A DNA stretch of 64,000 nucleotides, taken from positions 609 to 64,608 of the forward strand of contig DKZG01000014.1 in NCBI GenBank assembly GCA_002493595.1. Direction: 5' to 3'. Both the position numbers and the translations under genes were made by a program. The notes under the pieces are model-generated. The model did not search any database and had not been told where the DNA came from. It was given only the letters and a program-made list of their open reading frames with translations. Positions 5,318 through 54,298 of this stretch are shown here, piece by piece (within the stretch, counting starts at the first letter, position 1; the number at the start of each line of letters is the position of its first letter). Source of the stretch: Ruminococcaceae bacterium UBA7080. Lineage in GTDB: Bacteria > Bacillota > Clostridia > Oscillospirales > Acutalibacteraceae.

Positions 5318-5356
5318 AATTTATCCCACGGCAAACCAAATGCCGTGGGATAAATT
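5318..5356 (-). terminator. Hairpin/terminator after the SDR gene
   Basis: Perfect 16-bp inverted repeat AATTTATCCCACGGCA / TGCCGTGGGATAAATT with a 7-nt loop. Confidence 0.75.
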
Positions 5357-5362
5357 AATATA

Positions 5363-6925
5363 TTATCTCTTAATATCGTCCCATTTAACGCCGTTAATGT
5401 GGAAGAGATCATCAAATTTATAAACATTATGCTCTTCCTTAGTGTGGCTCGGATACCATACCTGTGCAAAGAATGGGTTAGTTTTAGCAACCTCATCATA
5501 GTTCCATTCCTTCTGAGGAATGTAGCACTCAGGACACCAGTGACCGCCAAGAAGGATAAGAGCAGGTGATGCTTCAAATTCTGCACCGCAAAGTCCGCAT
5601 TTCCACTTAAGCTTTGTAGCCATATCGCCTTTTGTCATGGTTTCACTTAAGCATTCGCCGCCACGGAATTTAGCTGCCATCTTCATGTCTTCGATATCGA
5701 GCTCAGACTCAGGCTTTGTTTCATCATAACCATGGTCAAGCTTAAACTGTTCAGCAGCACTGTTATCCTTATCAAACTTGATAATGTTGAAATCTTCCCA
5801 TTTTGTCGGAAGCTTTTCCCAATCAGCTTTTGAGCCATAGTAAGCACTCATACGAACCTTATCATCCTTAGCAGCCCAATCAAGAGTACCGAAATCAGGA
5901 GTTTGTGCAATTTTCTTCATGAATGGCTTTGCACATGCAGCAACAAGGTTCTTAGGAAGGTATCTTGGTATTTTAAAATAGAACTCAACCTGATCAGCAA
6001 GACGATTGAAATATTCCTGAACAGGGAGATTTTCACGGAAGTGAAGGAAATCTTCAAGCTTGTCACCATCAGCATAGAACTGACCATGGAAATTCTTTGT
6101 AATAAACCAATTCGGCTCGAAAAGCTTTTCAGGACCTGCAAGACCGAGTGTACCGAGAAGGAGACACTCAAATTCATAGTTAGAAATTCTGTATTCCTTA
6201 CCTGAACCGATATTAAAGAAGTGATTCCAGAAGTCAGAACCGAGATTACCTTTTTTATCTTCAAGAACAAGATTGCACATAAGTCGGCCTGAATCTTCAA
6301 CTGTACACCATTCCAGAACACCATTAATCGGTACGTGGAACATAATCGGATCCATATTCTTTAAGATGTTTGGATAAAGAATTCCGGACTGACGCATTAC
6401 AACCCAGTTTTTGATACCGCTTTCAACAAAAGTACGCTCTGCAACTGTCTTTGAAATTGCATAATGGTCATAGATAGAAATTTTAATTGGGTCACCGCAG
6501 CGTCCCCAGTGAATCGGATAGTTACGACCGCCTGTTTCAGCAACTGTACCTATGTAGCAAACCTTAACAGCATCCGGATCAGGCTGAGCAAGTACAGCCT
6601 TGCAGATACTCTGTGCAGCGCCGATATTTGTTGCCTGTGTTCTGTAAGGTTTCCAGTCAGCAGTAGGGGATACCATGCCGCCTACGTGAAGAACATAATC
6701 TGAGCCGGTTACACCCTCAAGAATTGAGTCGTAATCAGTAAGGTCACCCCAAACAATCTTTACGTTCGGCTTAGCCATAAGACCCTTTAATTTTTCTTCA
6801 TTCTTCGGACTTTTACGAGCAAGCATCTTGATGTTGATGTCGCTTGGGTGCTTGAGCATTTCCTGCACAGCAGCCCAGCCCATATTACCGGTACCGCCGG
6901 TAATAAATACGGTTTTCTTTGACAT
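5363..6925 (-). CDS. Extended SDR (NAD-dependent epimerase/dehydratase/3beta-HSD-like) with C-terminal Zn-ribbon
   Basis: Start MSKKTVF at 6925 behind AAGGAGG; TGGTGNMG Rossmann motif; YAISK (YxxxK); C-terminal RGGECLS...WKCGLCG...GHWCPEC. Confidence 0.85.
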   Translation of the reverse strand: MSKKTVFITGGTGNMGWAAVQEMLKHPSDINIKMLARKSPKNEEKLKGLMAKPNVKIVWGDLTDYDSILEGVTGSDYVLHVGGMVSPTADWKPYRTQATNIGAAQSICKAVLAQPDPDAVKVCYIGTVAETGGRNYPIHWGRCGDPIKISIYDHYAISKTVAERTFVESGIKNWVVMRQSGILYPNILKNMDPIMFHVPINGVLEWCTVEDSGRLMCNLVLEDKKGNLGSDFWNHFFNIGSGKEYRISNYEFECLLLGTLGLAGPEKLFEPNWFITKNFHGQFYADGDKLEDFLHFRENLPVQEYFNRLADQVEFYFKIPRYLPKNLVAACAKPFMKKIAQTPDFGTLDWAAKDDKVRMSAYYGSKADWEKLPTKWEDFNIIKFDKDNSAAEQFKLDHGYDETKPESELDIEDMKMAAKFRGGECLSETMTKGDMATKLKWKCGLCGAEFEASPALILLGGHWCPECYIPQKEWNYDEVAKTNPFFAQVWYPSHTKEEHNVYKFDDLFHINGVKWDDIKR

Positions 6926-6971
6926 AATTTTTCCTCCTTGATGTGCTTTCGCATAAATTACATACAACTAA

Positions 6972-7000
6972 ATTATAAACTAATTATAAACAAATTGCAA
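6972..7000 (-). promoter_or_regulatory. sigmaA promoter of the SDR gene
   Basis: Minus strand TTGCAA-N17-TATAAT. Confidence 0.75.
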
Positions 7001-7080: not shown

Positions 7081-7109
7081 TTGACAAGATTCATACTTTG
7101 ATGTATTAT
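7081..7109 (+). promoter_or_regulatory. sigmaA promoter of the SAM riboswitch/metK
   Basis: TTGACA-N17-TATTAT just upstream of the aptamer. Confidence 0.8.
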
Positions 7110-7125
7110 TTAAGAAATGAATATT

Positions 7126-7218
7126 GCTTATCAAGAGTGGCTGAGGGACAGGCCCTGTGATGCCACAGCAACCTGCTTTTTGTAAGGTGCTAATACCTGC
7201 GTACACCGAGTGATGAGG
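7126..7218 (+). ncRNA. SAM-I (S-box) riboswitch aptamer
   Basis: CTTATCAAGAG-TGGCTGAGGGACAGGCCC-TGTGATGCCACAGCAACC...AAGGTGCTAATACC...GATGAG, directly upstream of metK. Confidence 0.95.
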
Positions 7219-7225
7219 TTTTTTG

Positions 7226-7254
7226 ACACACATACTCGCCTATGTGTGTTTTTT
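7226..7254 (+). terminator. Expression-platform terminator of the SAM-I riboswitch
   Basis: ACACACATA-ctcgcc-TATGTGTGT plus T run. Alternative pairing GAGT(G)ATG 7208-7215 with CATACTC 7231-7237 gives an antiterminator. Confidence 0.85.
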
Positions 7255-7284: not shown

Positions 7285-8463
7285 ATGTCAAAGTTTTTAT
7301 TTACAAGCGAGTCTGTTACGAAAGGCCATCCTGATAAAATCTGTGACCGAATTTCAGACGCTATATTAGATGAAATGCTTGCTCAGGACCCGATGAGTCG
7401 TGTTGCGTGTGAAACCACCTGCACAACAGGTCAGGTTCTGGTTATGGGTGAAATTACAACATGTGCACAAGTTGATATTCCTGCAATTGTCCGCAAAACC
7501 ATTTGTGAAATTGGTTATGATGATGATAAAAAAGGCTTTAACGGCAATACATGTGCTGTTCTAACTGCCCTTGACAAACAGTCGAGTGATATTGCAATGG
7601 GTGTTGATAAATCTTATGAACTTAAAAATGACGAAGAGGATGAGTATAATTTAAATGGTGCAGGCGACCAGGGTATGATGTTTGGATATGCATGCAACGA
7701 AACGAAAGAGCTTATGCCGCTTCCTATCAGCCTTGCTCACAGGCTTGCTGTTAAGCTGACTGAGGTCAGAGAGAACGGAACACTCCCTTACCTCTATGCT
7801 GACGGTAAAACGCAGGTTACGGTTGAATATGAAGACGGAAAACCGGTTGCAGTTAAAACCGTTGTCGTATCAAGCCAGCATAGCGCCGATGTAGAGCTTG
7901 CACAGCTTCGTGAGGACATTATTGAAAAGGTTATTAAATCGACTATCCCTAAGGAACTTATCAGCGAAGAAACTGTGTACTATGTTAATCCTACCGGCCG
8001 ATTTGTTATTGGCGGACCTAACGGTGATTCAGGTTTGACCGGCAGAAAGATTATTGTTGATACATATGGCGGATATGCGCGTCACGGTGGTGGTGCTTTC
8101 AGCGGCAAGGATCCGACAAAAGTTGACAGAAGTGCGGCATATGCAGCACGCTGGGTTGCTAAAAACATTGTTGCTGCAGGTCTTGCAGATAAATGCGAAG
8201 TTGAGCTCGCTTATGCAATCGGTGTGGCAAAGCCTGTATCGGTTATGGTTGATACCTTTGCAACAGGGAAGATTGATGATGAAAAAATCAGTGAGATTGT
8301 TAATAAGGTATTTGATCTCAGGCCTTCTGCCATTATTGAGAGACTCGACCTCAGAAAGCCAATTTATAAGAATGTTTCTGCTTACGGGCATATGGGGCGT
8401 GAGGATCTGGATGTTTCCTGGGAAAAAGCAGATATGGTCGATGAGATAAAAAAATATATGTAA
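7285..8463 (+). CDS. metK: S-adenosylmethionine synthetase
   Basis: [48 protein letters not shown]. Start at 7285 behind AAGGAG. Confidence 0.98.
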
Positions 8464-8497
8464 CTATTGCGCAGTAATTATTTGATTGGATTTTATT

Positions 8498-9094
8498 ATG
8501 GATAATAAACCTGAAGTTCCTTTGAATTGCCTTTTTCAAGGTTGTTATAATCCTGTTTTTGAAGCTGAAATAAGCAGATGTAAGGATAAGTGTTATAAAT
8601 ATAATCAACTGAATCCAAATGACAGGGAAGCTCAGTATAAAATTCTTAAGGATTTGTTAGGTTCAATTGGTAAGGAGGTTATCATAACTCCACCCTTTTG
8701 GTGTGATTATGGGTATAATATAACAGTCGGTAATTCCTTTTATTCAAATCATAATTTGATAATTACTGATGGTGCAAAGGTGAAATTTGGAAATAATGTT
8801 TTTATAGCTCCGAATTGCTGCTTCACAACAGCTGAACATCCGATAGATCCTGAGCAGCGCAAATCCGGTCTTGAAATTGCAAATCCCATTACAGTGGGAA
8901 ATAATGTATGGATTGGTGCAGGTTCGACCATTCTTGCCGGTGTGACAATCGGCGATAATACTGTGATTGGTGCCGGAAGTGTAGTTACCAAATCAATTCC
9001 CCAAAATGTAGTTGCAGTCGGTGTGCCTTGCAAGGTTATGCGGGAAATAACTGATAGTGACAAATATCGTTATCGATTATTTAATCATAAATAG
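8498..9094 (+). CDS. maa: Maltose/galactoside O-acetyltransferase (hexapeptide repeat)
   Basis: PPFWCDYGYNI, hexapeptide repeats, NVWIGAG, VAVGVPCKV. Alternative start at 8486. Confidence 0.85.
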   Translation: MDNKPEVPLNCLFQGCYNPVFEAEISRCKDKCYKYNQLNPNDREAQYKILKDLLGSIGKEVIITPPFWCDYGYNITVGNSFYSNHNLIITDGAKVKFGNNVFIAPNCCFTTAEHPIDPEQRKSGLEIANPITVGNNVWIGAGSTILAGVTIGDNTVIGAGSVVTKSIPQNVVAVGVPCKVMREITDSDKYRYRLFNHK

Positions 9095-9102
9095 ATAATA
9101 AT

Positions 9103-9143
9103 AAATCTCCCTAAGCTTTGAAAACAAGCATTAGGGAGATTTT
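9103..9143. terminator. Bidirectional terminator between maa and proC
   Basis: AAATCTCCCTAA ... TTAGGGAGATTT inverted repeat between convergent genes. Confidence 0.8.
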
Positions 9144-9146
9144 GTT

Positions 9147-9944
9147 TTATAATCTTTTATCTTTATCAAGTGCTTTGTCAACGGCATTGTGTACAGCTTT
9201 TTCAAAACCGTCAGCTTGAAGCGACGTTACACCTTCAATTGTTGTACCGCCGGGTGAGCATACATTGTCAATCAGTTTCCACGGATGCTCGCTGCTTTCT
9301 AAAATCATTTTTGCACTGCCGTAAACAGTCTGAGCAGCAATCTTTAAAGCGTCATCTTTCTTCATTCCGTTTTTCACTCCTGCTCTTGCAAGGGCATCAA
9401 TAAACATATAAGTATATGCCGGTGCACAGCCGCCGAGAACACCGAAAAGCGGAAATGCACTTTCATCAAGACACATAACTTTTCCGATGCAGTTGAGAAG
9501 CTTTTCAATATTTTCTTTATCACATTCATTTACAAGATTATTAAAACAATAAGCGCTGATTGCTTCAGATACCTTTGCATTTATATTAGGCATAACTCTG
9601 ATTATTCTCGCATTAGTTTTAAGAGAATTACAAAGAAAATCCAGTGTTTTTCCTGCTGCAATGGAGACAAGCAACGGATGAAATATGCTAACTGCGTTCT
9701 CAATTTTTTTCAGAACAGAAGCAATCACATTTGGCTTAACTGCAAGAAAAACAATATCTGCTTTTTCAGCAATATCAATTTCGCTATTTAAAATTTCAGC
9801 GCCGTAATCATTTTTTATTATTTCGCAGGCGGGGGAGTATACGTCAAAAATAAGTATATCTTCACCTTTAACGAAATCGCTTTTTACAATGCCTTTTATA
9901 ATGGCTGTTGCCATATTGCCGCAGCCTATGAATCCTATTTTCAT
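9147..9944 (-). CDS. proC: Pyrroline-5-carboxylate reductase
   Basis: KIGFIGCGNMA, FLAVKP, SIAAG, RVMPN, VCSPGGTTIEG. Confidence 0.96.
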   Translation of the reverse strand: MKIGFIGCGNMATAIIKGIVKSDFVKGEDILIFDVYSPACEIIKNDYGAEILNSEIDIAEKADIVFLAVKPNVIASVLKKIENAVSIFHPLLVSIAAGKTLDFLCNSLKTNARIIRVMPNINAKVSEAISAYCFNNLVNECDKENIEKLLNCIGKVMCLDESAFPLFGVLGGCAPAYTYMFIDALARAGVKNGMKKDDALKIAAQTVYGSAKMILESSEHPWKLIDNVCSPGGTTIEGVTSLQADGFEKAVHNAVDKALDKDKRL

Positions 9945-15466: not shown

Positions 15467-16450
15467 TTGTTGGACAATATATCATTTTTCATATCACTTT
15501 TTCCAAAATATCTTTCTGATATTTTCAGCTGCTTTGAGAACAGCATCATCAGTCGTATTACCGAAATAAGGATCAGGAGAAATAAACCGATTATGATTTA
15601 CCTGAAAAATACGCCTTATTTCATAAGTGTTTCCGGAAGACTGATTGAAAGGTATTGCGATCATTGTGTAGCTATTGATGATGAGAATTTTGATTTTATT
15701 ACAGACAGGCTTTGCAATCATTCTTTTCATACGAATATGCATTCGATGATAGATGGTTATATTACTGCCAAAAATGGTTCAAGAGTCGGTATCAGCGCCA
15801 CAGCAGTTTATAAGGATGGAAATATTCATTCCGTTCGGGATATCAGCAGCATAAATATAAGAATTGCAGCGCAGCACAGAAATTGTGCTTCTGAAGTATT
15901 AAAGCTTTTATATTCCAATACAATTCCAAGTATCATTGTTGCAGGTCCTGTGATGTCGGGCAAAACAACTTTTCTTCGCGATTTATCCCGCCAGCTTTCA
16001 AGCGGATTTGCCGGTAAATACCGAAAGGTTGCAATTACTGATGAAAGAAAAGAAATTGCCTCAGGGTTTGATGTGGGATTAAATACAGATGTCCTATACT
16101 CGTACGATAAAGCTAAAGCGATTGAAATTGCAACAAGAACGCTTTCACCTGATATTATAGTGTGCGACGAAATCGGAAATATGAATGAATTGGAAGCTAT
16201 TCAGTACGGTTTTTCAACAGGAGTCAGCTTTGCTGTATCCGTGCATATGAAAGAACGCCGACAGCTTACAGAAAATAAGATTGTGTCACGCTTGATTTTG
16301 ACAGGTGAGTTTGATTATATTGTGCTTCTTAAATCTTTTACAGATGAATTTGAAATTATTGATTTGAGGTCATCAGAAAGTGAAAACAGCAGGAATAATA
16401 ATGATTATCCTTTTTTCTTCCTCCCTTGGGTTGGCAGTGGCGGGATTTAA
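15467..16450 (+). CDS. spoIIIAA: Stage III sporulation protein AA (ATPase)
   Basis: EIRIRRNKP, GSRVGIS, SINIRIA, GPVMSGKTTFLRDL, DERKEIA, RTLSPDIIVCDEIG. Confidence 0.92.
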   Translation: MLDNISFFISLFPKYLSDIFSCFENSIISRITEIRIRRNKPIMIYLKNTPYFISVSGRLIERYCDHCVAIDDENFDFITDRLCNHSFHTNMHSMIDGYITAKNGSRVGISATAVYKDGNIHSVRDISSINIRIAAQHRNCASEVLKLLYSNTIPSIIVAGPVMSGKTTFLRDLSRQLSSGFAGKYRKVAITDERKEIASGFDVGLNTDVLYSYDKAKAIEIATRTLSPDIIVCDEIGNMNELEAIQYGFSTGVSFAVSVHMKERRQLTENKIVSRLILTGEFDYIVLLKSFTDEFEIIDLRSSESENSRNNNDYPFFFLPWVGSGGI

Positions 16451-16823
16451 AAAAAAGCAGATTAAATATATTGACAGCTTAATTTATATTGCCGAAAAGA
16501 TTCTTCTAATGCTCAGCAGCATTTCACCTGAAACAGAAGATATTATGAACGAGCTGAAAAACGATGAAAGACTGAAAGGCTTTGATTTTGGATTAAAGAA
16601 TGAGAATTCACCATTGCCGCCTGAGGAAAATGACAGGTCACGTTTGTTGTTTAATACTCTTGGCAAGTACGATTTAGACTGTCAAATAAGCTACATAAAT
16701 CAATATTTAGGATATTTTAAAATGCTAAGACAGCAGTATCAGGATTACTATAACAGCCACTATAAGCTGTATCTTGTTTTTGGAGTTTTTATAGGAATAC
16801 TTGTTTCGGTTTTACTGATATAG
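16380..16823 (+). CDS. spoIIIAB: Stage III sporulation protein AB
   Basis: Operon position; N- and C-terminal TMs; LGKYDLDCQI...KLYLVFGVFIG. Confidence 0.8.
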   Translation: MKTAGIIMIILFSSSLGLAVAGFKKKQIKYIDSLIYIAEKILLMLSSISPETEDIMNELKNDERLKGFDFGLKNENSPLPPEENDRSRLLFNTLGKYDLDCQISYINQYLGYFKMLRQQYQDYYNSHYKLYLVFGVFIGILVSVLLI

Positions 16824-16845
16824 TGCAGTGTTAACGGGAGGATAA

Positions 16846-17040
16846 ATGGAAGTTGATTTTATTTTTAAAATTGCAGCAATCGGAATAATTGTGGCGGTTT
16901 TGAATACGGTTTTAATAAGAAGCGGAAGAGAAGAACAGGCCATGCTGACAACTCTTGCAGGTGTTATTGTAGTTTTAATGATGCTTGTTCCTGAAATAAG
17001 TGATTTATTCTCAACCGTTAAGTCGTTGTTTGATCTATGA
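16846..17040 (+). CDS. spoIIIAC: Stage III sporulation protein AC
   Basis: IFKIAAIGIIVAVLNTVLIRSGREEQAMLTTLAG. Confidence 0.95.
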   Translation: MEVDFIFKIAAIGIIVAVLNTVLIRSGREEQAMLTTLAGVIVVLMMLVPEISDLFSTVKSLFDL

Positions 17041-17417
17041 TAAAGCTTGCGGGATTTATAATTATTTCTCTTTTACTTATTATTTTTTTAAAAGAGGCGA
17101 AAAGAGAATTTGCCATGGTTCTTACTCTAGGGTGTGCAATTGTTTTATTTGCTGCCGTGGCAGATGATTTTATTAATATATTACATAATGTATATAATTT
17201 ATCGTCAGGGCTAAAAAACATCAATGCGTATATTTCACTGATGATAAAGATTTTGGGAATATCTCTTGTGGCACAGTTTGTTGTGGATTTATGTCGCGAT
17301 GCCGGTGAAAATGCGCTCGCATCGCAGACTGAAATTGCTTCAAAAATAATCATTCTTATAATGACAATGCCGCTTTTTGAGACGGTGCTAAATATTGTTA
17401 CAGGACTTTTGAAATGA
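17037..17417 (+). CDS. spoIIIAD: Stage III sporulation protein AD
   Basis: IKILGISLVAQF..DLCRDAGENALASQTE..SKI. Confidence 0.93.
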   Translation: MIKLAGFIIISLLLIIFLKEAKREFAMVLTLGCAIVLFAAVADDFINILHNVYNLSSGLKNINAYISLMIKILGISLVAQFVVDLCRDAGENALASQTEIASKIIILIMTMPLFETVLNIVTGLLK

Positions 17418-18538
17418 AAAGAATTTTAATTATTTTATCGGTGTTGCTTATAATACCAAACACATTTTGCTTTGCAGCTGAAAAAAGCGAATACGAGGAG
17501 TATCTCGGCTCTTTTGACTTAAGCTCATTTGAACTGCTTGATAATGATACAAAGAATTTTTTGGATACTTTGGGGATACTTGACTTTGATTATGAAAATC
17601 TCTCGGATATTTCTATCAAAAGCGTTTTCGAGCATATCTGGAATATCATAACACAAAAGTCCGATGGGCCTATAAAAACAGGTATTATTGTAATTGTATT
17701 TATTTTGCTGGCTTCTTTTTTTCGCTCTTTCTCTACTGAAATTAATAAAAGTGATTTAACAGAAACCTTTTCCACTGTATCCACACTTATTATTTCCATA
17801 TTTCTTACATATAATTTAACGGATTGTATTGCACTTTGCTGCTCAACCATTAAGCTTTGCTCTGATTTTTCTTTTGCTTTTTTTCCGGCCTTTTGTATCA
17901 TTGTATCTACATCCGGTGCAGCTATGACATCTTTTTCGGTTAATACGACTCTGCTTATTCTTGCACAGTCACTTAATTATATATCCGAGCTTATTTTTAT
18001 TCCGATAACAAATTGTTTTCTTGCACTTGGAATATGTTCCGGAATACGCCGCGAGCTTAATTTGAGCGGAACAATCAATATGTTAAAGAAGTTGATAACA
18101 ACAGCTATTTCTACTGTATCGGCAATATTTGTTTCCATACTCTCTGTTAAAACAGCTGTTGCCTCTAAAGCCGATGCCCTTGGTCTTCGTTCGGTAAGAT
18201 TTGCAATCAACTCTGTTGTACCGGTAATCGGAAGCTCAATAAGTGAAGGGCTTCTTTCAATACAGAGCTATTCAAGCTTGATAAAGACGAGTGTCGGCGT
18301 TGTTGGCATTATTGCTGTAATATCAATATTTCTGCCTTCTCTGATAGAAATAAATCTTTGGCGTTTTGTGTTGTCGCTGTCATCCTTGTGCGGCGAAATA
18401 TTCGGTGACCGGTCATCTGTTAAGGCAGTAGAAACCTTTAAGGATGCTTTATTGATTATTGATGTGCTTTTAATTTTGACAATGGTAACAACAATCATAT
18501 CAATAGGTATACTGGTTGCGGCAAAGTCGGGGTCTTAA
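17414..18538 (+). CDS. spoIIIAE: Stage III sporulation protein AE
   Basis: Polytopic membrane protein; RFAINSVVPVIGSSISE; operon position. Confidence 0.88.
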   Translation: MKRILIILSVLLIIPNTFCFAAEKSEYEEYLGSFDLSSFELLDNDTKNFLDTLGILDFDYENLSDISIKSVFEHIWNIITQKSDGPIKTGIIVIVFILLASFFRSFSTEINKSDLTETFSTVSTLIISIFLTYNLTDCIALCCSTIKLCSDFSFAFFPAFCIIVSTSGAAMTSFSVNTTLLILAQSLNYISELIFIPITNCFLALGICSGIRRELNLSGTINMLKKLITTAISTVSAIFVSILSVKTAVASKADALGLRSVRFAINSVVPVIGSSISEGLLSIQSYSSLIKTSVGVVGIIAVISIFLPSLIEINLWRFVLSLSSLCGEIFGDRSSVKAVETFKDALLIIDVLLILTMVTTIISIGILVAAKSGS

Positions 18539-18976
18539 ATGGAATTTTTAAAAGAATGGACTTTAACCATCTGTATTACTTTAGTCATTTCAGTGATATT
18601 TTCAGTGCTTACGCCTAAAGGGAATATGGGCAAATTTTTTAAAATAATACTTGCAACGTTTATTTTTCTCTCATTTATCTATCCGTTTAAAAGTGATGAA
18701 ATTGATTTTTCATTTCCGGAATTTTCTGCTGAAGAGCTTGCTCAAGAGCAAAAAGATACATATGAGAAGACCGTTACAGCGCAGACTTTGCAGGCACTCG
18801 AAAGTCAAGGTTATAAATCCTGCAGCGTAAAGAGCAGAATTTCATTAAAAGATAATGAAATTCTAATTAAAAGTCTTACAATAACAGCTCCCGACAGCTA
18901 CAACAAAGATGAAATAAAAAAGTATATTTTTGATACGTTGGGAATTAACGCAGAGGTGTATTATCTTGGAGAATAA
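18539..18976 (+). CDS. spoIIIAF: Stage III sporulation protein AF
   Basis: LTPKGNMGKFFKIIL..F..L...P; operon position. Confidence 0.8.
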   Translation: MEFLKEWTLTICITLVISVIFSVLTPKGNMGKFFKIILATFIFLSFIYPFKSDEIDFSFPEFSAEELAQEQKDTYEKTVTAQTLQALESQGYKSCSVKSRISLKDNEILIKSLTITAPDSYNKDEIKKYIFDTLGINAEVYYLGE

Positions 18977-19493
18977 AATAAAGGAAAGATTAAAGAGCTT
19001 TATTTCAGGTGACAGCAAAAAAATTAAGATAATTGTTGCCGTAGGATTAATCGGTATGATTTTGATTTTTGCATCGGATTTGTTTGCCAAAGATGAAAAA
19101 AAGCAGGACGCCTCAAATGAAAGCATAAGCTATGAAGAATATACGCAAGAGCTTGAAAATAAGCTTGTACAGCTGATTTCATCGATAAGCGGAGTGGGTG
19201 AATGCCGTGTAATGATAACGCTTGAAAATACTGCCGAAAGTGTTTATGCTACAGATGTTGAAGTGAAAAATGATGATGAGACCCTTAATCAAAAGGATAA
19301 ATATGTTATTTATAATTCCGATAAAGGAGAGGCCCCTGTACTTATAAAAGAATTTTTGCCTAAGGTGCAGGGTGTTACGGTTGTCTGCACAGGTGGTGAC
19401 AATATTGCAGTGAAGGAAAAAATAATTGAAGCCGTTACCTCTTTATTTAATATACCAACAAACAGAGTATCTGTTTCAAAAATAAAAGCATAA
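18966..19493 (+). CDS. spoIIIAG: Stage III sporulation protein AG
   Basis: TTG start 7 nt after GAGGTG; LENKL..LISSISGVGECRVMITL, PKVQGVTVVCTGGD, LFNIPTNRVSV. Confidence 0.92.
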   Translation: MENKIKERLKSFISGDSKKIKIIVAVGLIGMILIFASDLFAKDEKKQDASNESISYEEYTQELENKLVQLISSISGVGECRVMITLENTAESVYATDVEVKNDDETLNQKDKYVIYNSDKGEAPVLIKEFLPKVQGVTVVCTGGDNIAVKEKIIEAVTSLFNIPTNRVSVSKIKA

Positions 19494-19504
19494 AGGTGAT
19501 AAAA

Positions 19505-20113
19505 ATGAGTAAAAACAAAATGAGCAAAGAAAAAAAGGAAAAAACAATATTAAATGAAAATGATATTTATAAAAAGAAGTCAAGAAAGACCAAAATAGCT
19601 ATTTCCTGCTTCATACTTCTGCTTGGTGTCGGTGTTATGGGCAATTGGTATTGGGAAAACAGCGATTTGTCTAATAAAGTCAGTACCATTTCAGGTGCGA
19701 AAGAAAAAATACTCGGCGAAGCTACTTATGTTGATGCAACAACCGAACCTGCAAAAGAAAGCCAATATTTTTCAAATGCCAGAGTTGACAGACAAAAAGC
19801 CAGAGATGAAAGTCTTGAAAAACTGCAGAAAATCTTAGATGCTTCTTCACAAAGTGATGCAGCAAAAAAAGAAGCTACGAAGAAAATCGCCGATATTTCC
19901 GATATGATTAATAAGGAAAATAAAATTGAAACACTTGTAACTGCGAAAGGCGTTAAAAACTGCATAGCAGTAATTAACGAAAATTCTAAAAAAGTGGATA
20001 TAATAGTAGAAGCAGAAGAGCTGTCAGATACGGTAATACTTCAGATTAAAGAAATTGCGACAGGGCAGCTTGGCTGTTCATATGAGGATGTAACAATTAT
20101 TCAGTCAAAATAA
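19505..20113 (+). CDS. spoIIIAH: Stage III sporulation protein AH
   Basis: TM anchor; YFSNARVDRQKARDE, IETLVTAKG..NCIA; last gene of the operon. Confidence 0.88.
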   Translation: MSKNKMSKEKKEKTILNENDIYKKKSRKTKIAISCFILLLGVGVMGNWYWENSDLSNKVSTISGAKEKILGEATYVDATTEPAKESQYFSNARVDRQKARDESLEKLQKILDASSQSDAAKKEATKKIADISDMINKENKIETLVTAKGVKNCIAVINENSKKVDIIVEAEELSDTVILQIKEIATGQLGCSYEDVTIIQSK

Positions 20114-34199: not shown

Positions 34200-35630
34200 A
34201 TGAATAACAAAGCAAAATCTTATTTTGAAAATTTGAAAAGTAAAAAAGTTGCCTTTGTCGGAATGGGTGTGGCTAATGTGCCATGTGCAGAGTTCCTTGC
34301 ACAGCAGGGTATTGAGGTTTACGCTTGTGACAGACGGGATAAAGAATATATAGGGGTCGAAATATGCCAAAGACTTGAATCACTTGGTGTAAACTTCTCT
34401 TTAGGTGAGAATTATCTGGATATTTTGCCTGATATGGATTTGGTATTTCGTTCACATGGGATACTTCCGTTTCAGAATCCATGGATAGGGGAATGCATTG
34501 AACGCGGCCAAACAGTTACAACAGAAATGGAAGTATTTTTTAAGCTTTGTCCATCAAAAATCATCGCTGTTACAGGTTCAAACGGCAAAACTACTACAAC
34601 AACACTTATATCTGAAATGCTTAAGCAGCAGGGCTATAACGTATATCTCGGCGGAAACATCGGCAAAGCGCTTATGCCGGAGCTTGAAACGATTTGCGAA
34701 AATGATATTGCAGTTGTTGAATTGTCATCGTTCCAGCTTCTGACAATGGGTAATTTGCAGAATACGCCCGACATTGCGGTTGTAACAAATATCGAATGTA
34801 CGCATCAGGATCATCATATCAGTCTTGATGAATATGTTGATGCAAAGAGAAATATTTTAATTTATCAGAATTCTGATTGTATTACTGTTCTTAATGCTGA
34901 TTGTGATTATTCAATCGGGAATAGGGTTTATCACGATATGAGATATGATGTCAGAGGCGAACTGTGTGAGTTTTCAGTCAGCCATCCTGTAATCAAAGGT
35001 GCATATATGAAAGAGAGCGGTGAAATTGTTTATACAAATCATGGTGAAGAAACGTTTGTTATGAACAGGGATGATATTATCCTTCCCGGTATGCATAATA
35101 TTGAAAATTATTGTACGGCAATCAGTGCACTCTGGAATATTGTTGAACCTGATAATATGTTAAAAGTTGCCAAACAATTCGGCGGTGTTGAACATAGGAT
35201 TGAATTTGTGCGTGAATTTGACGGTGTAAAATATTATAACGATTCTATCGCAACATCACCATCTCGTGTCATAAGCGGACTCAGAGCCTTTGGCAGAAAG
35301 ATTATTGTAATTATGGGCGGTTCCGATAAAGGAAATGATATAAGCGAAATGGTGCCGGATATACTTCAATATGTGAAGCTTCTTGTTTTAAACGGAGCTA
35401 CAGCCGATAAAATTTATAACACCATTATAGGCAGCAGTGAATATAAAAACAGTGATATAAATATAATAAAAACCGATACACTTGAAAATGCTTTATATGC
35501 AGCAAAACAAAATGCAGAGAACGGCGATATTGTTTCACTTTGTCCGGCATGTCCTGCATTTGATCAGTTTAAAACGTTTGAATACAGAGGCAGAAAATTT
35601 AAAGAACTTGTGAATGGATTTGATAAATGA
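34200..35630 (+). CDS. murD: UDP-N-acetylmuramoyl-L-alanine-D-glutamate ligase
   Basis: AVTGSNGKTTTT, GGNIG, ELSSFQL, HRIEFV, YNDSIAT, CPACPAFDQF..FEYRG. Confidence 0.88.
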   Translation: MNNKAKSYFENLKSKKVAFVGMGVANVPCAEFLAQQGIEVYACDRRDKEYIGVEICQRLESLGVNFSLGENYLDILPDMDLVFRSHGILPFQNPWIGECIERGQTVTTEMEVFFKLCPSKIIAVTGSNGKTTTTTLISEMLKQQGYNVYLGGNIGKALMPELETICENDIAVVELSSFQLLTMGNLQNTPDIAVVTNIECTHQDHHISLDEYVDAKRNILIYQNSDCITVLNADCDYSIGNRVYHDMRYDVRGELCEFSVSHPVIKGAYMKESGEIVYTNHGEETFVMNRDDIILPGMHNIENYCTAISALWNIVEPDNMLKVAKQFGGVEHRIEFVREFDGVKYYNDSIATSPSRVISGLRAFGRKIIVIMGGSDKGNDISEMVPDILQYVKLLVLNGATADKIYNTIIGSSEYKNSDINIIKTDTLENALYAAKQNAENGDIVSLCPACPAFDQFKTFEYRGRKFKELVNGFDK

Positions 35631-36652
35631 TGAAAACAAATACACTTGAATTAATAAAAGAGCTGACACAGCCTGTAGGTGTATCCGGAAAAGAAGAAAA
35701 TATTGCTTTGCTTTTAAAAGAAAAATTGCTGCCTTATGGTGATGTTTCAATAGATTCTATGAACAATGTATGCTGCACATTCGGTGAAGGTTATCATTTT
35801 CTTTTAGATGCACATATTGATGAAATCGGAATGATTGTAACAGATATTACGGATGACGGATTTATAAAAATGTCAGCCTGCGGTGGAATTGACACTCGCT
35901 TTCTGCCTGCAATGGAAGTTTCAATATGGGGCACAAAGGAAATAAAGGGCATAATATCTACCCTTCCGCCGCATTTGCAGACTGCTAATGATGAAAAAAA
36001 ATCCCCTAAACTCTCTGACCTCTCAATAGATACCGGTATGAAAAAGCAGGAGCTTGAAAACTTTGTTTCGCTTGGTGACAGAATTACGTTTAAGCGTAAT
36101 TTTACACCGCTTCTTAATGGTCTTGTATCCTCATCCTGTCTTGATGACAGGGCAGGTGTTGCAGCCATACTGCTTTCTCTTGAGGAATTGAAAAAATTGC
36201 CATGCAAGATTACGGTTATGTTTTCGTCTCAGGAGGAAGTCGGCACCAGGGGAGCAAAAACAGGCGCATGGAGCAAAAATTGTGATGAAGCTATAGTTGT
36301 AGATGTTTCATTCGCCTTAACCCCGGGCTGTGATAAGTCCGACTGCGGTGAAATTTCAAAAGGCGCAATGATCGGGTTTTCACCTACTATTGATGCTGAT
36401 ATATCAAAGCAGCTTGTAAATATAGCAAAAATGAAAGCTATCCCATATCAGTGTGAGATTATGTCAGGCAGAACCGGAACAAATGCCGATGTTATTGCCG
36501 TTTGTGAAAAGGGCATAAAAACGGCTCTTATTTCAATTCCTGAAAAGTATATGCATCAAAGAGTTGAAGTTGTCGATATTGAAGATGTCGAAAATGTTTC
36601 AAAACTGATATGTGCTTATATTTCAGAAAGGAGCAACGAAATAAATGCTTAA
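35627..36652 (+). CDS. M42 family metallo-aminopeptidase (paralog 1)
   Basis: AHIDEIG, LDDRAG, QEEVG, VDV, YMH metal ligands. Confidence 0.88.
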   Translation: MMKTNTLELIKELTQPVGVSGKEENIALLLKEKLLPYGDVSIDSMNNVCCTFGEGYHFLLDAHIDEIGMIVTDITDDGFIKMSACGGIDTRFLPAMEVSIWGTKEIKGIISTLPPHLQTANDEKKSPKLSDLSIDTGMKKQELENFVSLGDRITFKRNFTPLLNGLVSSSCLDDRAGVAAILLSLEELKKLPCKITVMFSSQEEVGTRGAKTGAWSKNCDEAIVVDVSFALTPGCDKSDCGEISKGAMIGFSPTIDADISKQLVNIAKMKAIPYQCEIMSGRTGTNADVIAVCEKGIKTALISIPEKYMHQRVEVVDIEDVENVSKLICAYISERSNEINA

Positions 36653-37646
36653 AACACTTTGCAGTCTTAACGGCACCTCCGGTGATGAGAAAAATGTAAG
36701 AGAATATATTCTTAATGAAATAAAAGATTATTGCGAGTACACGGTTGATAATCTCGGCTCCGTTATTGCTTTTAAAAAGGGTAATAATATACCTGCAAAA
36801 AAAGTTATGTTCTCAGCACATATGGACGAGGTTGGATTTATTATAACCGATATAGATGAGAACGGATATCTGTCCTTTCGTACAGTGGGAGGTATAGATA
36901 ATAAAGTAATAGCCGACAGGGTTGTGACCGTAAATTCAGTCAATGGCGTTATCGGTTTAAAACCTGTTCATATGCTGGAAAAGGATCAAAAAGAAACTGC
37001 ACCTGATATTAAGTTAATGAAAATTGATATAGGTGCTAACAGTAAAGAGGATGCACTGCAATATGTTCATCCGGGTGACTATGCTTATTTTAAATCCGAT
37101 TATTGTGAATTTGGTAATGGTTATATCAAATCAAAAGCACTGGATGATCGAATCGGCTGCATGCTTTTAATTGAACTAATTAAATCTGATTTGGATTATG
37201 ATACTTATTTTTGTTTTAATGTTCAGGAAGAGGTAGGTTTGCGAGGTGCTATGTGCACATCGTATGCAGTTCAAAGTGACATCTCAATCGTACTTGAAGC
37301 GACAACAGCGGCAGATTTGTGCAGTGTCACCGGCGGGGACAGAGTATGTGTTCTGGGCAATGGCGGCGTAGTTTCCTTTATGGACGGAAGAACAATTTAT
37401 GATAATTCACTTTATCGTTTGGCAATGAAGACGGCAAAAGACAATAATATTAAGGTTCAAACAAAAACGGCAATTGCCGGCGGAAATGATGCCGGTGCAA
37501 TTCAAAGCAGCGGAAAGGGAAGTCGTGTTCTTGCTGTTTCTTTACCTTGCAGATATATTCACTCGGCAGCGAGCGTTGTAAAGGAATCCGATATTTGTGA
37601 AACAAAAAGACTTTTAAAGGCACTTTTACCAAAACTATATGATTGA
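36645..37646 (+). CDS. M42 family metallo-aminopeptidase (paralog 2)
   Basis: AHMDEVG, KALDDRIG, VQEEVGLRGA, LEAT, GGNDAG, RYIH. Confidence 0.9.
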   Translation: MLKTLCSLNGTSGDEKNVREYILNEIKDYCEYTVDNLGSVIAFKKGNNIPAKKVMFSAHMDEVGFIITDIDENGYLSFRTVGGIDNKVIADRVVTVNSVNGVIGLKPVHMLEKDQKETAPDIKLMKIDIGANSKEDALQYVHPGDYAYFKSDYCEFGNGYIKSKALDDRIGCMLLIELIKSDLDYDTYFCFNVQEEVGLRGAMCTSYAVQSDISIVLEATTAADLCSVTGGDRVCVLGNGGVVSFMDGRTIYDNSLYRLAMKTAKDNNIKVQTKTAIAGGNDAGAIQSSGKGSRVLAVSLPCRYIHSAASVVKESDICETKRLLKALLPKLYD

Positions 37647-48188: not shown

Positions 48189-48770
48189 ATGAAAATTTCT
48201 AAAATATTTATTCCGCTGTTTATGATACTTACATTAAGTTTAAGTTTTTTTCAGCCTGTTATTGCAGTGTCCGAAAGTATAAGCAATAAAATTTTAAGGC
48301 TGCATATTCTTGCTGATTCGGACTCCGGTGAAGATCAAAACTTAAAGCTAAAAGTCAGGGATTATTTTCTTGATAATACAAAAGATTTGTTTACAGGAGA
48401 TACACTTGAAGAAAATATTCAAATTGCACAGGAAAATATTAACTATATGGAAGAGCTGTGCAATAAATGCCTGTATGATAACGGAAGTTCAAGCCGAGCA
48501 AAAGTAACACTTGAAAAAGAATACTTTGATACAAGAGTTTATGATGATTTTACACTTCCTGCAGGCGTCTATCATTCTATAAAAATTGAGATAGGCAAGG
48601 GGAGAGGTCACAATTGGTGGTGCATTGTATTTCCGTCTGTATGTTTGTCAGCATGTTCAACATCAATGAGTGAATACCTGAGTGAGGATGAAATGAAATT
48701 GGTAAGCGAAGGTTATACACCGAAATTTAAAATAATAGAAATATATGAAAAACTAAAAAACAAATGGTGA
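48189..48770 (+). CDS. spoIIR: Stage II sporulation protein R
   Basis: Signal peptide; LRLHILADSDS..DQNLKLKVRD, LPAGVY, IGKGRGHNWWCIVFP..C. Confidence 0.95.
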   Translation: MKISKIFIPLFMILTLSLSFFQPVIAVSESISNKILRLHILADSDSGEDQNLKLKVRDYFLDNTKDLFTGDTLEENIQIAQENINYMEELCNKCLYDNGSSSRAKVTLEKEYFDTRVYDDFTLPAGVYHSIKIEIGKGRGHNWWCIVFPSVCLSACSTSMSEYLSEDEMKLVSEGYTPKFKIIEIYEKLKNKW

Positions 48771-48833: not shown

Positions 48834-48868
48834 AAAAGAGTGACAGATATTTTAACTGTCACTCTTTT
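48834..48868. terminator. Bidirectional terminator between spoIIR and tRNA-Leu(CAA)
   Basis: AAAAGAGTGACAG ... CTGTCACTCTTTT perfect 13-bp inverted repeat. Confidence 0.85.
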
Positions 48869-48954
48869 GGTGCCGGCGGCGGGGGTCGAACCCGCACCCT
48901 GTTGCCAGGACCGGATTTTGAGTCCGGCACGTCTGCCAATTCCATCACGCCGGC
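48868..48954 (-). tRNA. tRNA-Leu (anticodon CAA)
   Basis: GCCGGCG acceptor stem, anticodon arm CCGGA-CTCAAAA-TCCGG, long variable arm, GGTTCGACCC T-loop, encoded CCA. Confidence 0.97.
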
Positions 48955-49009: not shown

Positions 49010-49096
49010 TGGTGCTGGTGACCGGACTTGAACCGGTACGGTATTGCTACCGAGGGATTTTAAGTCCCTTGCGTCTGCCTATTTCGCCACACCAGC
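49010..49096 (-). tRNA. tRNA-Leu (anticodon TAA)
   Basis: GCTGGTG acceptor stem, AGGGA-CTTAAAA-TCCCT, long variable arm, GGTTCAAGTCC, encoded CCA. Confidence 0.97.
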
Positions 49097-52695: not shown

Positions 52696-53670
52696 ATGAG
52701 AAAAGAAGAATTTATATACTTACCTAAACTTGTACAGCAATATCTTGTATATATCGAAGCAATCAAGGGGCACAGCAAATTATCTGTAATTGAATACGCC
52801 TCTGATTTGAGGACCTTTTTCAGATATATGGCTAAAAACAAAGGATTATGCAGCAGCGATACACCGGATGAAAAAATTGATCTATCCCCTATTGATTTAG
52901 ATTTTATACAGAGTGTAAATCTTACAGATGCATATCAATTTTTAATTTATTGCAAAGATGTACGTAATAACAGCGAGGCTACACGTTCAAGGCGAGTGAT
53001 TGCAGTACGCCGATTTTATAATTATCTATCAGAAAATCTTGGATTAATAGATAAAAACCCTTTAAAAAATCTTGATGCACCTAAAATGAAAAAATCCTTG
53101 CCCAAATATCTAACCCTTGAAGAATCGGAGAGATTGTTATCTGTAATCGATGGCAGGCATAAAGAACGTGACTATGCAATTGTTACTCTGTTTTTAAATT
53201 GCGGTATGCGTTTGAGTGAACTTGTTGCAATAGATTATAATGATATTAAGGATGATGGTTCGATTGTAATTACCGGAAAAGGCAACAAAGAGAGAATTGT
53301 GTATCTCAACCAAGCTTGTATCGATGCTGTCATAAAGTATATAAAAGTCAGACCAAACGATGGTGTAAAAGACAGAGCTTTATTTCTCAGCTCCAGAAAT
53401 AAACGGATAAGCCCTAAAACTGTACAGCATATGGTGTATGGATATCTTGAGAAAGCAGGACTTGGAGACAGAGGTTTATCTGTTCATAAGCTCAGGCATA
53501 CAGCAGCAACTTTGATGTATCAGCATGGCAATGTTGATTTGTTGCTGCTTAAAGAAATACTCGGTCACGAAAATCTCGGAACTACAGAAATTTATACGCA
53601 CATAAATGATGAAGCAACGCGTAAAGCGATACAATCCAATCCGCTCGCAAAGGAAAAACCTAAATGGTAA
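52696..53670 (+). CDS. Chromosomal tyrosine recombinase, XerC-annotated / XerS-like clostridial type
   Basis: Catalytic R (CGMRLSEL), K (TGKGNKER), HKLRH, LGH, Y (TEIYTH). No mobile-element neighbours. Confidence 0.9.
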   Translation: MRKEEFIYLPKLVQQYLVYIEAIKGHSKLSVIEYASDLRTFFRYMAKNKGLCSSDTPDEKIDLSPIDLDFIQSVNLTDAYQFLIYCKDVRNNSEATRSRRVIAVRRFYNYLSENLGLIDKNPLKNLDAPKMKKSLPKYLTLEESERLLSVIDGRHKERDYAIVTLFLNCGMRLSELVAIDYNDIKDDGSIVITGKGNKERIVYLNQACIDAVIKYIKVRPNDGVKDRALFLSSRNKRISPKTVQHMVYGYLEKAGLGDRGLSVHKLRHTAATLMYQHGNVDLLLLKEILGHENLGTTEIYTHINDEATRKAIQSNPLAKEKPKW

Positions 53671-54298
53671 CCACGGGAAATAATAGATTGGTCAGCAAAG
53701 CTTCAAAGAATGCAGCGACTGCAATGCCAAAAGCTAAAAGCAAGTATTTTTTTACATATGGTTTGACATTTAATTCGTTATTCTCAATACTGTTTTTAGT
53801 CGCTTTTACCAATGCTTTTGATAATTCACTGCTTATTTTAATTGTTAAGGCAATTACAGTCAAAAATAATGCTATATACGGGACAATCATCACAAGTGAA
53901 TAACCTACACCTTTAGCTGAGTAATTGACGAACAGATATGCTGTTCTAATACCGGTAACAATTCCTATTACAGTGGGTATAATATTTATAATAGGGTATC
54001 CTATTAAACAAAAACCCAGAAAAACTATGATTAAATATAATGAAAAATAGACACAAAAATCAGATATAAAAGAATTTAATATACTTTGATTTTCAGGCTT
54101 TAGCAGTGCATTTAATGCTTCTGTTGCAGATATTTTATAAAAATATGTACCTATAAAGAGACCGAAAGAATAGAAAAGTGCTGTATAAATAATAGACTTA
54201 TATTCATTAAAAATTTTTCCTATTTCGATTTTACGCTCTTCTTGCGCGTCAAACGCATTATCTTCATCTTCAAATAATGCAATTTTTTCATCTTCCAT
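53660..54298 (-). CDS. spoIIM: SpoIIM-like polytopic membrane protein
   Basis: LGFCLIGYPII..IP..IG..TG..TAYL..YSAKG...VP...AAFFEA pattern of SpoIIM. Confidence 0.65.
   Translation of the reverse strand: MEDEKIALFEDEDNAFDAQEERKIEIGKIFNEYKSIIYTALFYSFGLFIGTYFYKISATEALNALLKPENQSILNSFISDFCVYFSLYLIIVFLGFCLIGYPIINIIPTVIGIVTGIRTAYLFVNYSAKGVGYSLVMIVPYIALFLTVIALTIKISSELSKALVKATKNSIENNELNVKPYVKKYLLLAFGIAVAAFFEALLTNLLFPVVTI

Follow-up and report, generated by a model that had tools for sequence, protein, structure and literature searches.

Gut bacteria that convert cholesterol to poorly absorbed coprostanol carry a trait associated with reduced cholesterol in stool and in serum, and SpiR of Eubacterium coprostanoligenes (WP_242941742.1; Arp et al., Nat Commun 2026;17:3495, PMC13079761) has now been put forward as the principal enzyme of this conversion and as its best metagenomic marker. 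SpiR is described, from liquid chromatography-mass spectrometry assays, isothermal titration calorimetry and dynamic light scattering, as a homodimeric steroid delta5-4 isomerase and 3-keto reductase that binds nicotinamide adenine dinucleotide, NAD(H). Its products are cholestenone from cholesterol and progesterone from pregnenolone, both by oxidation, and 3-beta alcohols by reduction of 3-keto steroids; it also acts on 5-beta-dihydroprogesterone, binds NAD+ and NADH at approximately 1 µM, and does not bind NADPH (PMC13079761). We analysed a spiR-type gene on the minus strand of a 64,000-nucleotide stretch (the window, on contig DKZG01000014.1) of Ruminococcaceae bacterium UBA7080, which an earlier note, made from the letters of the sequence, had proposed as a candidate sterol dehydrogenase. 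As a discovery, this proposal has been overtaken by the 2026 publication: the kind of enzyme is already described as SpiR, and only the rodent-gut host is new.

The window protein and SpiR align over 520 residues with no gap, 459 of them identical (88%), at 955 bits, and the ortholog of E. coprostanoligenes ATCC 51222 (8001-9560 of the locus that we call L045) is WP_242941742.1 exactly. The authors of the SpiR study counted as homologs proteins that score at least 500 bits to WP_242941742.1; because 955 bits far exceeds this cut-off, the window protein is a member of the SpiR subfamily. A search of approximately 5.8 billion proteins returned 4591 relatives, many of them proteins of gut metagenome-assembled genomes (MAGs) at 83-93% identity. 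When one genome per species was scanned, the window fell in the Eubacterium coprostanoligenes group, its best locus being that of a mouse-gut 'Eubacterium sp.' MAG (98%); the best related loci come from Eubacterium coprostanoligenes-group and Fimenecus MAGs and from E. coprostanoligenes ATCC 51222 (88%), and the gene order is common to them. The host differs from that of SpiR, the window DNA being matched exactly in rat and mouse gut metagenomes. Sequence comparison thus supports the assignment of the window gene as a spiR ortholog of the cholesterol-reducing Acutalibacteraceae clade in a rodent-gut host.

The reading frame opens with ATG at 6925-6923 and closes with TAA at 5365-5363. As the earlier note had described, it encodes a 520-residue protein with the TGGTGNMG loop, the triad of Thr127, Tyr155 and Lys159, and three C-terminal signatures, RGGECLS (residues 421-427), WKCGLCG (441-447) and GHWCPEC (461-467), all where it had placed them; the four cysteines of interest are residues 443, 446, 464 and 467. 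Its classification as an extended short-chain dehydrogenase/reductase (SDR) is equally sound. The extended-SDR models of Pfam match residues 3-181, that is, the N-terminal 180 residues or so (Epimerase at 3.5e-10, NmrA, and 3Beta_HSD at 6.5e-8), with Epimerase and 3Beta_HSD above their cut-offs (for 3Beta_HSD, PF01073, 32.4 bits against 22). The AlphaFold2 model is confident along the whole chain, with a mean predicted local distance difference test score (pLDDT) of 87.4 and a predicted template modelling score of 0.89. Across 41 family members, down to 27% identity, Lys159 is kept in all 41, Tyr155 in 40, and Thr or Ser stands at position 127 in every one. The SpiR paper gives the triad as T126/Y155/K159 (PMC13079761). 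Residue 126 is glycine in both SpiR and the window protein, and the catalytic threonine is residue 127 in both; the published T126 is therefore off by one.

Beyond the close orthologs, 223 cluster representatives score below 1e-30 to the window protein, many of them over the full length. Two of these relatives, P0153 and P0220, carry the domain at 45-50% identity C-terminal to an Oxidored_FMN plus Pyr_redox_2 enzyme of the steroid 5-beta-reductase type, P0153 aligning to residues 2-501 of the window protein at 45% identity; P0153, P0220 and P0273 all have an N-terminal reductase of the Old Yellow Enzyme type. Fusions of a 5-beta-reductase to a SpiR-like domain turn pregnenolone into epipregnanolone (PMC12238238). 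Because members of the family are fused to enzymes of the steroid 5-beta-reductase type, a steroid role for the family has support that is independent of SpiR itself. Among distant members, at 36-38% identity, P0185 has C-terminal flavodoxin-like and 4Fe-4S dicluster domains and P0179 the 4Fe-4S domain only.

SpiR oxidises the 3-beta-hydroxyl of delta5-sterols, cholesterol and pregnenolone among them, to give the delta4-3-ketone, and in the reverse direction it takes 3-keto-5-beta-steroids, for example coprostanone, to the 3-beta alcohol with stereospecificity; the first and the last steps in the conversion of cholesterol to coprostanol are of these two kinds. By analogy with this 88% ortholog, the window enzyme would do likewise. 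SDR chemistry and conservation predict Tyr155 as the catalytic acid/base; Lys159 would lower its pKa and bind the nicotinamide ribose, Thr127 would orient the substrate oxygen, and the TGGTGNMG loop would bind the dinucleotide. The C-terminal extension of some 225 residues would be an accessory domain, with a Cys4 site that is most likely a structural zinc derived from a finger of the DUF4379 type. The gene itself appears to be monocistronic, with a promoter and a terminator of its own, and is predicted to be strongly and probably constitutively expressed. Taken as a whole, and by analogy with SpiR, we consider it very probable that the gene encodes a SpiR-type steroid dehydrogenase/isomerase with an accessory zinc-finger domain, expressed strongly from a monocistronic unit.

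The signals around the gene are in keeping with this layout. Promoter-like sites in the AT-rich spacer upstream number four, where 6.5 are expected by chance; what makes the promoter of Table 1 credible is that its boxes, as TTGYAA-17-TATAAT, and the AAGGAGG persist in 12 orthologous loci whose spacers have otherwise diverged. The near-consensus promoter and strong Shine-Dalgarno sequence that the earlier note had pointed out are thus conserved elements. The 16-bp hairpin that it had assigned to the gene folds at -25.9 kcal/mol (z = -6.5), and 0 of 200 shuffled sequences fold as well. Codon usage was compared over 49 open reading frames (ORFs) of the window, among which there is no ribosomal-protein or elongation-factor set that could serve as a reference, as the C-ending share of six NNY codon pairs. 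The share in spiR is 0.44, the highest of the 49, the next being 0.31 and the median about 0.22, in agreement with the marked preference relative to neighbours that had been noted by eye. AAG also ranks first (0.63), and CGT (0.57), CTT (0.68) and CAG (0.92) each rank second among the same ORFs. Because GCC, GCG, GTC, CCC, ACG, TCG and GGG are absent from spiR, the pattern is selective rather than a shift in GC content, and in 51 of 55 related loci the spiR ortholog exceeds its conserved neighbours in NNC share. Horizontal transfer was considered as the source of the bias and found unlikely, since the bias is codon-specific (CGT, CTT, AAG, NNC) and recurs in those 51 orthologous loci. Two tRNA-Leu genes of the window (48868-48954 and 49010-49096, minus strand), with anticodons CAA and TAA, read TTG and TTA; these are the leucine codons that spiR avoids most, at shares of 0.00 and 0.08 compared with 0.14 and 0.19 in the other ORFs.

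Transcription could be followed in E. coprostanoligenes. In small metatranscriptome assemblies from pig gut and other sources, 64-85% of the sampled words of its spiR were present. We placed the contigs of such assemblies on the 17.5-kb L045 locus at 95% identity or above. Contigs of three runs (X26, X27 and X29; Table 1) cover the gene: two of them, X26 and X27, begin approximately 30 nucleotides before the ATG (8001) and downstream of TATAAT (7932-7937), that of X29 begins just after the ATG, and all three stop in or near the terminator at 9586-9613. Most of the flanking genes have depths of 0-25 in these runs. In a fourth run, X33, spiR has a depth of 352, and the flanking genes 41-247. These observations support a well-expressed, monocistronic spiR in E. 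coprostanoligenes. Together with the codon bias, they lend indirect support to the view that the window gene, too, is highly expressed, as had been suggested from its sequence. For the strain of the window itself, a search for RNA gave only rat-gut 'RNA-Seq' contigs of about 90% identity, which cover the gene and not its flanks; they are confounded by the high conservation of the gene and were not used.

Table 1. Features of the spiR ortholog in the window, and metatranscriptome contigs on the E. coprostanoligenes locus (L045)
Feature	Coordinates	Strand	Remarks
spiR ortholog, coding sequence	5363..6925	minus	520 residues and stop; 88% identity, 955 bits, gapless to WP_242941742.1
TGGTGNMG glycine-rich dinucleotide-binding motif, residues 9-16	6878..6901	minus	T9, G10, G13 and G16 invariant in 28 homologs
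Catalytic triad region	6449..6547	minus	T127 (6545-6547), Y155 (6461-6463), K159 (6449-6451)
C-terminal extension, residues 296-520	5366..6040	minus	Mostly helical in the AlphaFold2 model; beyond the extended-SDR core
Cys4 metal module, residues 429-467	5525..5641	minus	C443-x2-C446 and C464-x2-C467; DUF4379-like treble-clef/zinc-ribbon knuckles
Sigma-70-type promoter, TTGCAA-17 nt-TATAAT	6972..7000	minus	Kept as TTGYAA-17-TATAAT in 12 orthologous loci
Shine-Dalgarno sequence, AAGGAGG	6933..6939	minus	7 nt before the ATG; kept in orthologous loci
Terminator hairpin, 16 bp	5318..5356	minus	6 nt past the stop, between the convergent spiR and VanW genes
X26 contig	L045 7970-9594		Depth 16.3
X27 contig	L045 7970-9548		Depth 45.2
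X29 contig	L045 8003-9577		Depth 22.8

Public annotation gives such proteins as 'NAD-dependent epimerase/dehydratase family protein' or 'nucleoside-diphosphate-sugar epimerase', and a nucleoside-diphosphate-sugar epimerase or dehydratase would agree with Epimerase as the best Pfam match, with best PDB sequence matches to UDP-N-acetylglucosamine (UDP-GlcNAc) dehydratases of the FnlA, CapD and PseB types, which are confined to roughly residues 3-120, and with best fold matches to RmlB, GMD and WbpP at target-normalised template modelling scores of 0.6-0.75. The fold matches, which include dTDP-glucose and GDP-mannose dehydratases, UDP-GlcNAc epimerase and cinnamoyl-CoA reductase, span about 350 alignment columns, that is, the SDR part of the protein, at only 13-20% identity. 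The equivalog models of NCBIfam score far under their cut-offs (PseB 43.7 bits against 407.75, FnlA 40.6 against 730, dTDP-glucose dehydratase 21.5 against 365, GalE 10.8 against 262), and only the extended-SDR fold class is common; we therefore rejected a nucleotide-sugar enzyme, whose probability we put as very small. Family members are fused to steroid 5-beta-reductases, and no glycan genes are found near spiR. The absence of polysaccharide genes had been used earlier to argue for a sterol substrate; it stands as an observation, none adjoining the gene, but the argument is a weak one. The stronger ground for the earlier proposal, namely that the enzyme acts on sterols or steroids and not on nucleotide sugars, is that SpiR, the 88% ortholog, acts on steroids in published assays (PMC13079761). 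The suggested link to IsmA, another cholesterol-oxidising enzyme of this bacterial group and likewise a Rossmann-fold protein of the SDR superfamily, fell away. Against the IsmA sequence of Supplementary Data 1 of PMC13079761, BLASTP aligns only 22 residues of the glycine-rich motif of the window protein, at 23.5 bits; adh_short (PF00106), the class of IsmA, reaches 12.9 bits on the window protein against a cut-off of 26.6, and SpiR and IsmA are 10.7% identical (PMC13079761). With similarity limited to the glycine motif, homology to IsmA is refuted at the family level, its likelihood being practically nil, and tblastn found no ismA in the window or in 80 related loci. A different question is the part that a SpiR-type enzyme plays in the cell, and here several points weigh against the account given above. 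The function of the window protein is transferred from its 88%-identical ortholog, and the SpiR study gives no kcat/Km, its lysate assays having run for 48 h (PMC13079761). Lysate of E. coprostanoligenes oxidises cholesterol with NADP+, which fits IsmA and not an NAD-specific SpiR, and cholesterol induces ismA 28.9-fold (PMC7435688). The 5-beta-reductase IsmB prefers 5-cholesten-3-one (preprint 10.64898/2025.12.29.696961), and the need for an isomerase step is for this reason uncertain. In the window protein, Arg37 and Lys38 follow strand beta-2 with no acidic residue (Arg-Lys-Ser, residues 37-39, window 6811-6819), and Arg37 is kept in 27 of 28 close homologs. This position usually decides between NAD and NADP in SDRs, and SDRs with a basic and no acidic residue there usually use NADP(H). 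The pair is thus at odds with the reported binding of NAD(H), and not NADPH, by SpiR. As to expression, the segment just downstream of spiR in X27, a pig-gut metatranscriptome (L045 9583-10362), is deeper than spiR itself, 142.8 compared with 45.2, and assembler contig depth is a crude measure of expression that gives no rank in a transcriptome. The case for zinc, discussed below, is likewise a comparative one. The tensions over cofactor, kinetics and IsmB concern the carrier of flux in vivo, and not the kind of enzyme. They leave some room for the same enzyme to serve as a constitutive, broad-range 3-beta-hydroxy/3-keto steroid oxidoreductase (of phytosterols, of steroid hormones, or mainly of coprostanone to coprostanol), with the cholesterol-induced, NADP+-dependent IsmA carrying out the committed first step. 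In addition to the lysate activity, the induction of ismA and the missing kinetic constants, this would suit the acceptance of pregnenolone and 5-beta-dihydroprogesterone by SpiR, a codon bias and a MetK-like conservation that fit a core constitutive function, and the presence of close relatives in Tritrichomonas, which is not known as a coprostanol maker. We nonetheless judge it unlikely: SpiR has a dissociation constant of 908 nM for cholesterol, tighter than that of IsmA according to PMC13079761, the presence of spiR is a better predictor than ismA of coprostanone detection (area under the curve 0.95), and a human isolate that has spiR and lacks ismA still makes coprostanol.

The steroid dehydrogenase/isomerase reading leaves the nature of the C-terminal metal site to be weighed separately. 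The extension as a whole has no significant relative in the PDB by sequence profile or by fold, and its residues 296-410 and 470-520 found no known relative in these searches. Between them, Pfam DUF4379 (PF14311, 'probable treble clef zinc finger') matches residues 429-467 at 2.8e-4 and 21.5 bits, just under its cut-off of 24.5. By phmmer, some 70 residues (403-472, window 5510-5717) match proteins of 5-16 tandem DUF4379 repeats at 38-50% identity, with whole-protein E-values of 1e-39 to 1e-75; P0192 (1629 residues), P0203 and P0209 are among them, and for P0192 Pfam confirms the DUF4379 assignment at 3.1e-49. The best PDB match of the C-terminal region is also a DUF4379 protein, mt-SAF33, at weak scores (profile E 0.83; fold match to 9hny_Fd at E 0.47, probability 0.82). 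A rubredoxin-like Fe(Cys)4 centre was proposed from modelling in PMC13079761, which reports no metal analysis and holds structural zinc unlikely on the ground that such sites 'are not universally conserved'; such a centre could serve in redox chemistry or electron relay, for instance toward the Fe-S flavoenzyme 5-beta-reductase. The knuckles KCGLCG and WCPEC do resemble the CxxCG and CPxC of rubredoxin. In 28 close homologs, the four cysteines are invariant or nearly so (C443, C464 and C467 in all 28, C446 in 26), and the fusion of some distant relatives to flavodoxin and 4Fe-4S domains means that the family has redox partners. However, rubredoxin gave no Pfam match and was absent from the top 50 fold matches of a separate model of the C-terminal region (pLDDT 70), and the hydride transfer of an SDR requires no one-electron centre. 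The wider family departs from the four-cysteine pattern: in a set of 41 full-length relatives that reaches down to 27% identity, CxxC...CxxC is found in 9 (the SpiR clade, the copies of Tritrichomonas and two more), Cys-x3-His...CxxC in 22, and the ligands are lost in 10. The motif W-x-C-x3-H...C-x2-C denotes a Cys-His-Cys-Cys site, one residue shorter, and is the DUF4379 pattern; the 5-beta-reductase fusion P0153 is of this type. A histidine ligand and a dispensable site are what is expected of a structural zinc finger. Structural zinc is thus favoured because most relatives have the histidine ligand, about a quarter have no ligands, and the module is homologous to the DUF4379 zinc-finger repeats; on this comparison the Cys4 site probably binds structural zinc and not iron, and we regard the iron centre as improbable. 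The earlier note had spoken of some 200 extra residues and a zinc ribbon: the extension is real, at about 225 residues, and zinc is the better-supported reading of the site from comparison of sequences. If the module is a zinc finger, the C-terminal domain would be a structural or docking module and not a redox centre.

SpiR-type enzymes are not limited to the Acutalibacteraceae, and sequence searches place them also in Tritrichomonas genomes. Full-length SpiR-like proteins at 52-60% identity are encoded by Tritrichomonas foetus (P0104, P0106 and P0149) and T. musculus (P0112 and P0117), both parabasalids, on megabase-sized scaffolds of up to 11.4 Mb, with the Cys4 site kept. All of the copies have hydrophobic, signal-peptide-like N-terminal extensions of 24-67 residues. 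Neighbour joining makes them sister to the SpiR clade of bacteria, with the CxxC variant common to both. The SpiR survey of PMC13079761 covered GTDB genomes only, and copies in Tritrichomonas were for this reason outside its reach; none of the papers searched links Tritrichomonas with SpiR-type enzymes. The joint proposition, that the protist genes point to gene transfer between gut Clostridia and gut protists, and perhaps to protists that convert sterols, and that a DUF4379-derived zinc finger makes up the Cys4 site, is one that we advance tentatively, as a serious possibility somewhat short of probable.

In the window, spiR stands alone, convergent with a gene for a VanW-Fn3 protein and divergent from a unit of SAM-I (S-adenosylmethionine) riboswitch and metK. 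The neighbours are araB/A/D, the VanW-Fn3 gene, the SAM riboswitch-metK unit, an acetyltransferase gene and proC. Of 80 loci, 60 retain metK and spiR as a divergent pair, and across related loci identity is 84-98% for SpiR and 82-92% for MetK, with ProC, AraD and VanW far less conserved. The riboswitch (7125-7219, plus strand, 77.4 bits), upstream of metK (7285-8463), has its own promoter, TTGACA-17-TATTAT at 7081-7109, back-to-back with that of spiR, and a terminator-like hairpin at 7225-7250. When 48 ORFs of the window were annotated with Pfam, they proved to be ordinary housekeeping and sporulation genes, with no 5-beta-reductase of the Old Yellow Enzyme/IsmB type, no IsmA and no transporter attributable to sterols among them. 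A steroid gene cluster around spiR was rejected on this annotation. The ism genes have been reported as not colocalised, and the window agrees. The sporulation genes spoIIIAA, spoIIIAE, spoIIIAH, spoIIR and spoIIM lie at 15467-20113, 48189-48770 and 53660-54298, although PMC13079761 calls the cholesterol-reducing Eubacterium species non-spore-forming. The only other unusual oxidoreductase of the window is an aldo/keto reductase with a C-terminal 4Fe-4S dicluster domain (60544-61677, minus strand). At 35627-37646 on the plus strand, two M42 glutamyl-aminopeptidase paralogs stand in tandem; a GNAT acetyltransferase gene and one like methionine-gamma-lyase come after them.

A spiR gene from the rodent gut that has the anatomy of the known one, and likewise stands alone and is strongly expressed, should help work on the pathway in mice and rats as models. 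What is still of interest is which metal is bound, what the C-terminal domain does, the discrepancy over the cofactor and the copies in protists; of these, the question of zinc or iron and the Tritrichomonas genes could change the view of the enzyme.

Among the known systems, SpiR itself is the nearest. It shares with the window protein the length of 520 residues, the glycine motif, the Thr/Tyr/Lys triad and the positions of the four cysteines, and its locus shares the divergent metK neighbour and the pattern of promoter and ribosome-binding site; the two proteins differ by 61 substitutions, clustered in residues 340-400. IsmA (ECOP170, WP_078769004.1; Kenny et al., Cell Host Microbe 2020, PMC7435688) comes from the same group of organisms as SpiR and shares its nominal reactions, cholesterol to cholestenone and the interconversion of coprostanol and coprostanone. 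Unlike the window protein, it is a classical SDR (PF00106) of 279 residues with an S138/Y151/K155 triad, is specific for NADP+ and is induced by cholesterol (PMC7435688).

The bacterial 3-beta-hydroxysteroid dehydrogenase/delta5-4 isomerases, dw0523 of Dysosmobacter welbionis and the fused mf2052 and fp1951 (Arp et al., Nat Commun 2025;16:6285, PMC12238238), form a related family. They resemble the window protein in having an extended-SDR core, a long C-terminal extension, a metal module and a remote match to PF01073, and their chemistry, from 3-beta-hydroxy-delta5 to delta4-3-keto, is that of SpiR. The family is approximately 30-45% identical to the window protein (SpiR and dw0523 are 39.5% identical according to PMC13079761). 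Its members are often fused to a 5-beta-reductase or adjoin one, whereas spiR stands alone, and the relatives that we sampled at this distance have mostly the Cys-x3-His first knuckle and not CxxC. AcmA of Sterolibacterium denitrificans, Rv1106c of M. tuberculosis and the eukaryotic HSD3B enzymes (PF01073) are, like SpiR, built on the extended-SDR scaffold and work without oxygen as 3-beta-hydroxysteroid dehydrogenases/isomerases. In the published tree SpiR falls with them, at less than 25% identity, and its metal site is described as previously unrecognised in the SDR superfamily (PMC13079761); they are not described with a Cys4 extension of some 225 residues such as that of the window protein. 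For the module itself, the closest likeness is to the DUF4379 repeats, as in mt-SAF33, an assembly factor of the trypanosome mitoribosome (PDB 6sga and 9hny, chain Fd), which have the W-x-C...G-H-W-C-P-x-C knuckles and a local fold like that of residues 429-467. Unlike those repeats, the module of the window protein is a single copy inside an enzyme, and the SpiR subfamily has a cysteine in the place of the histidine ligand.

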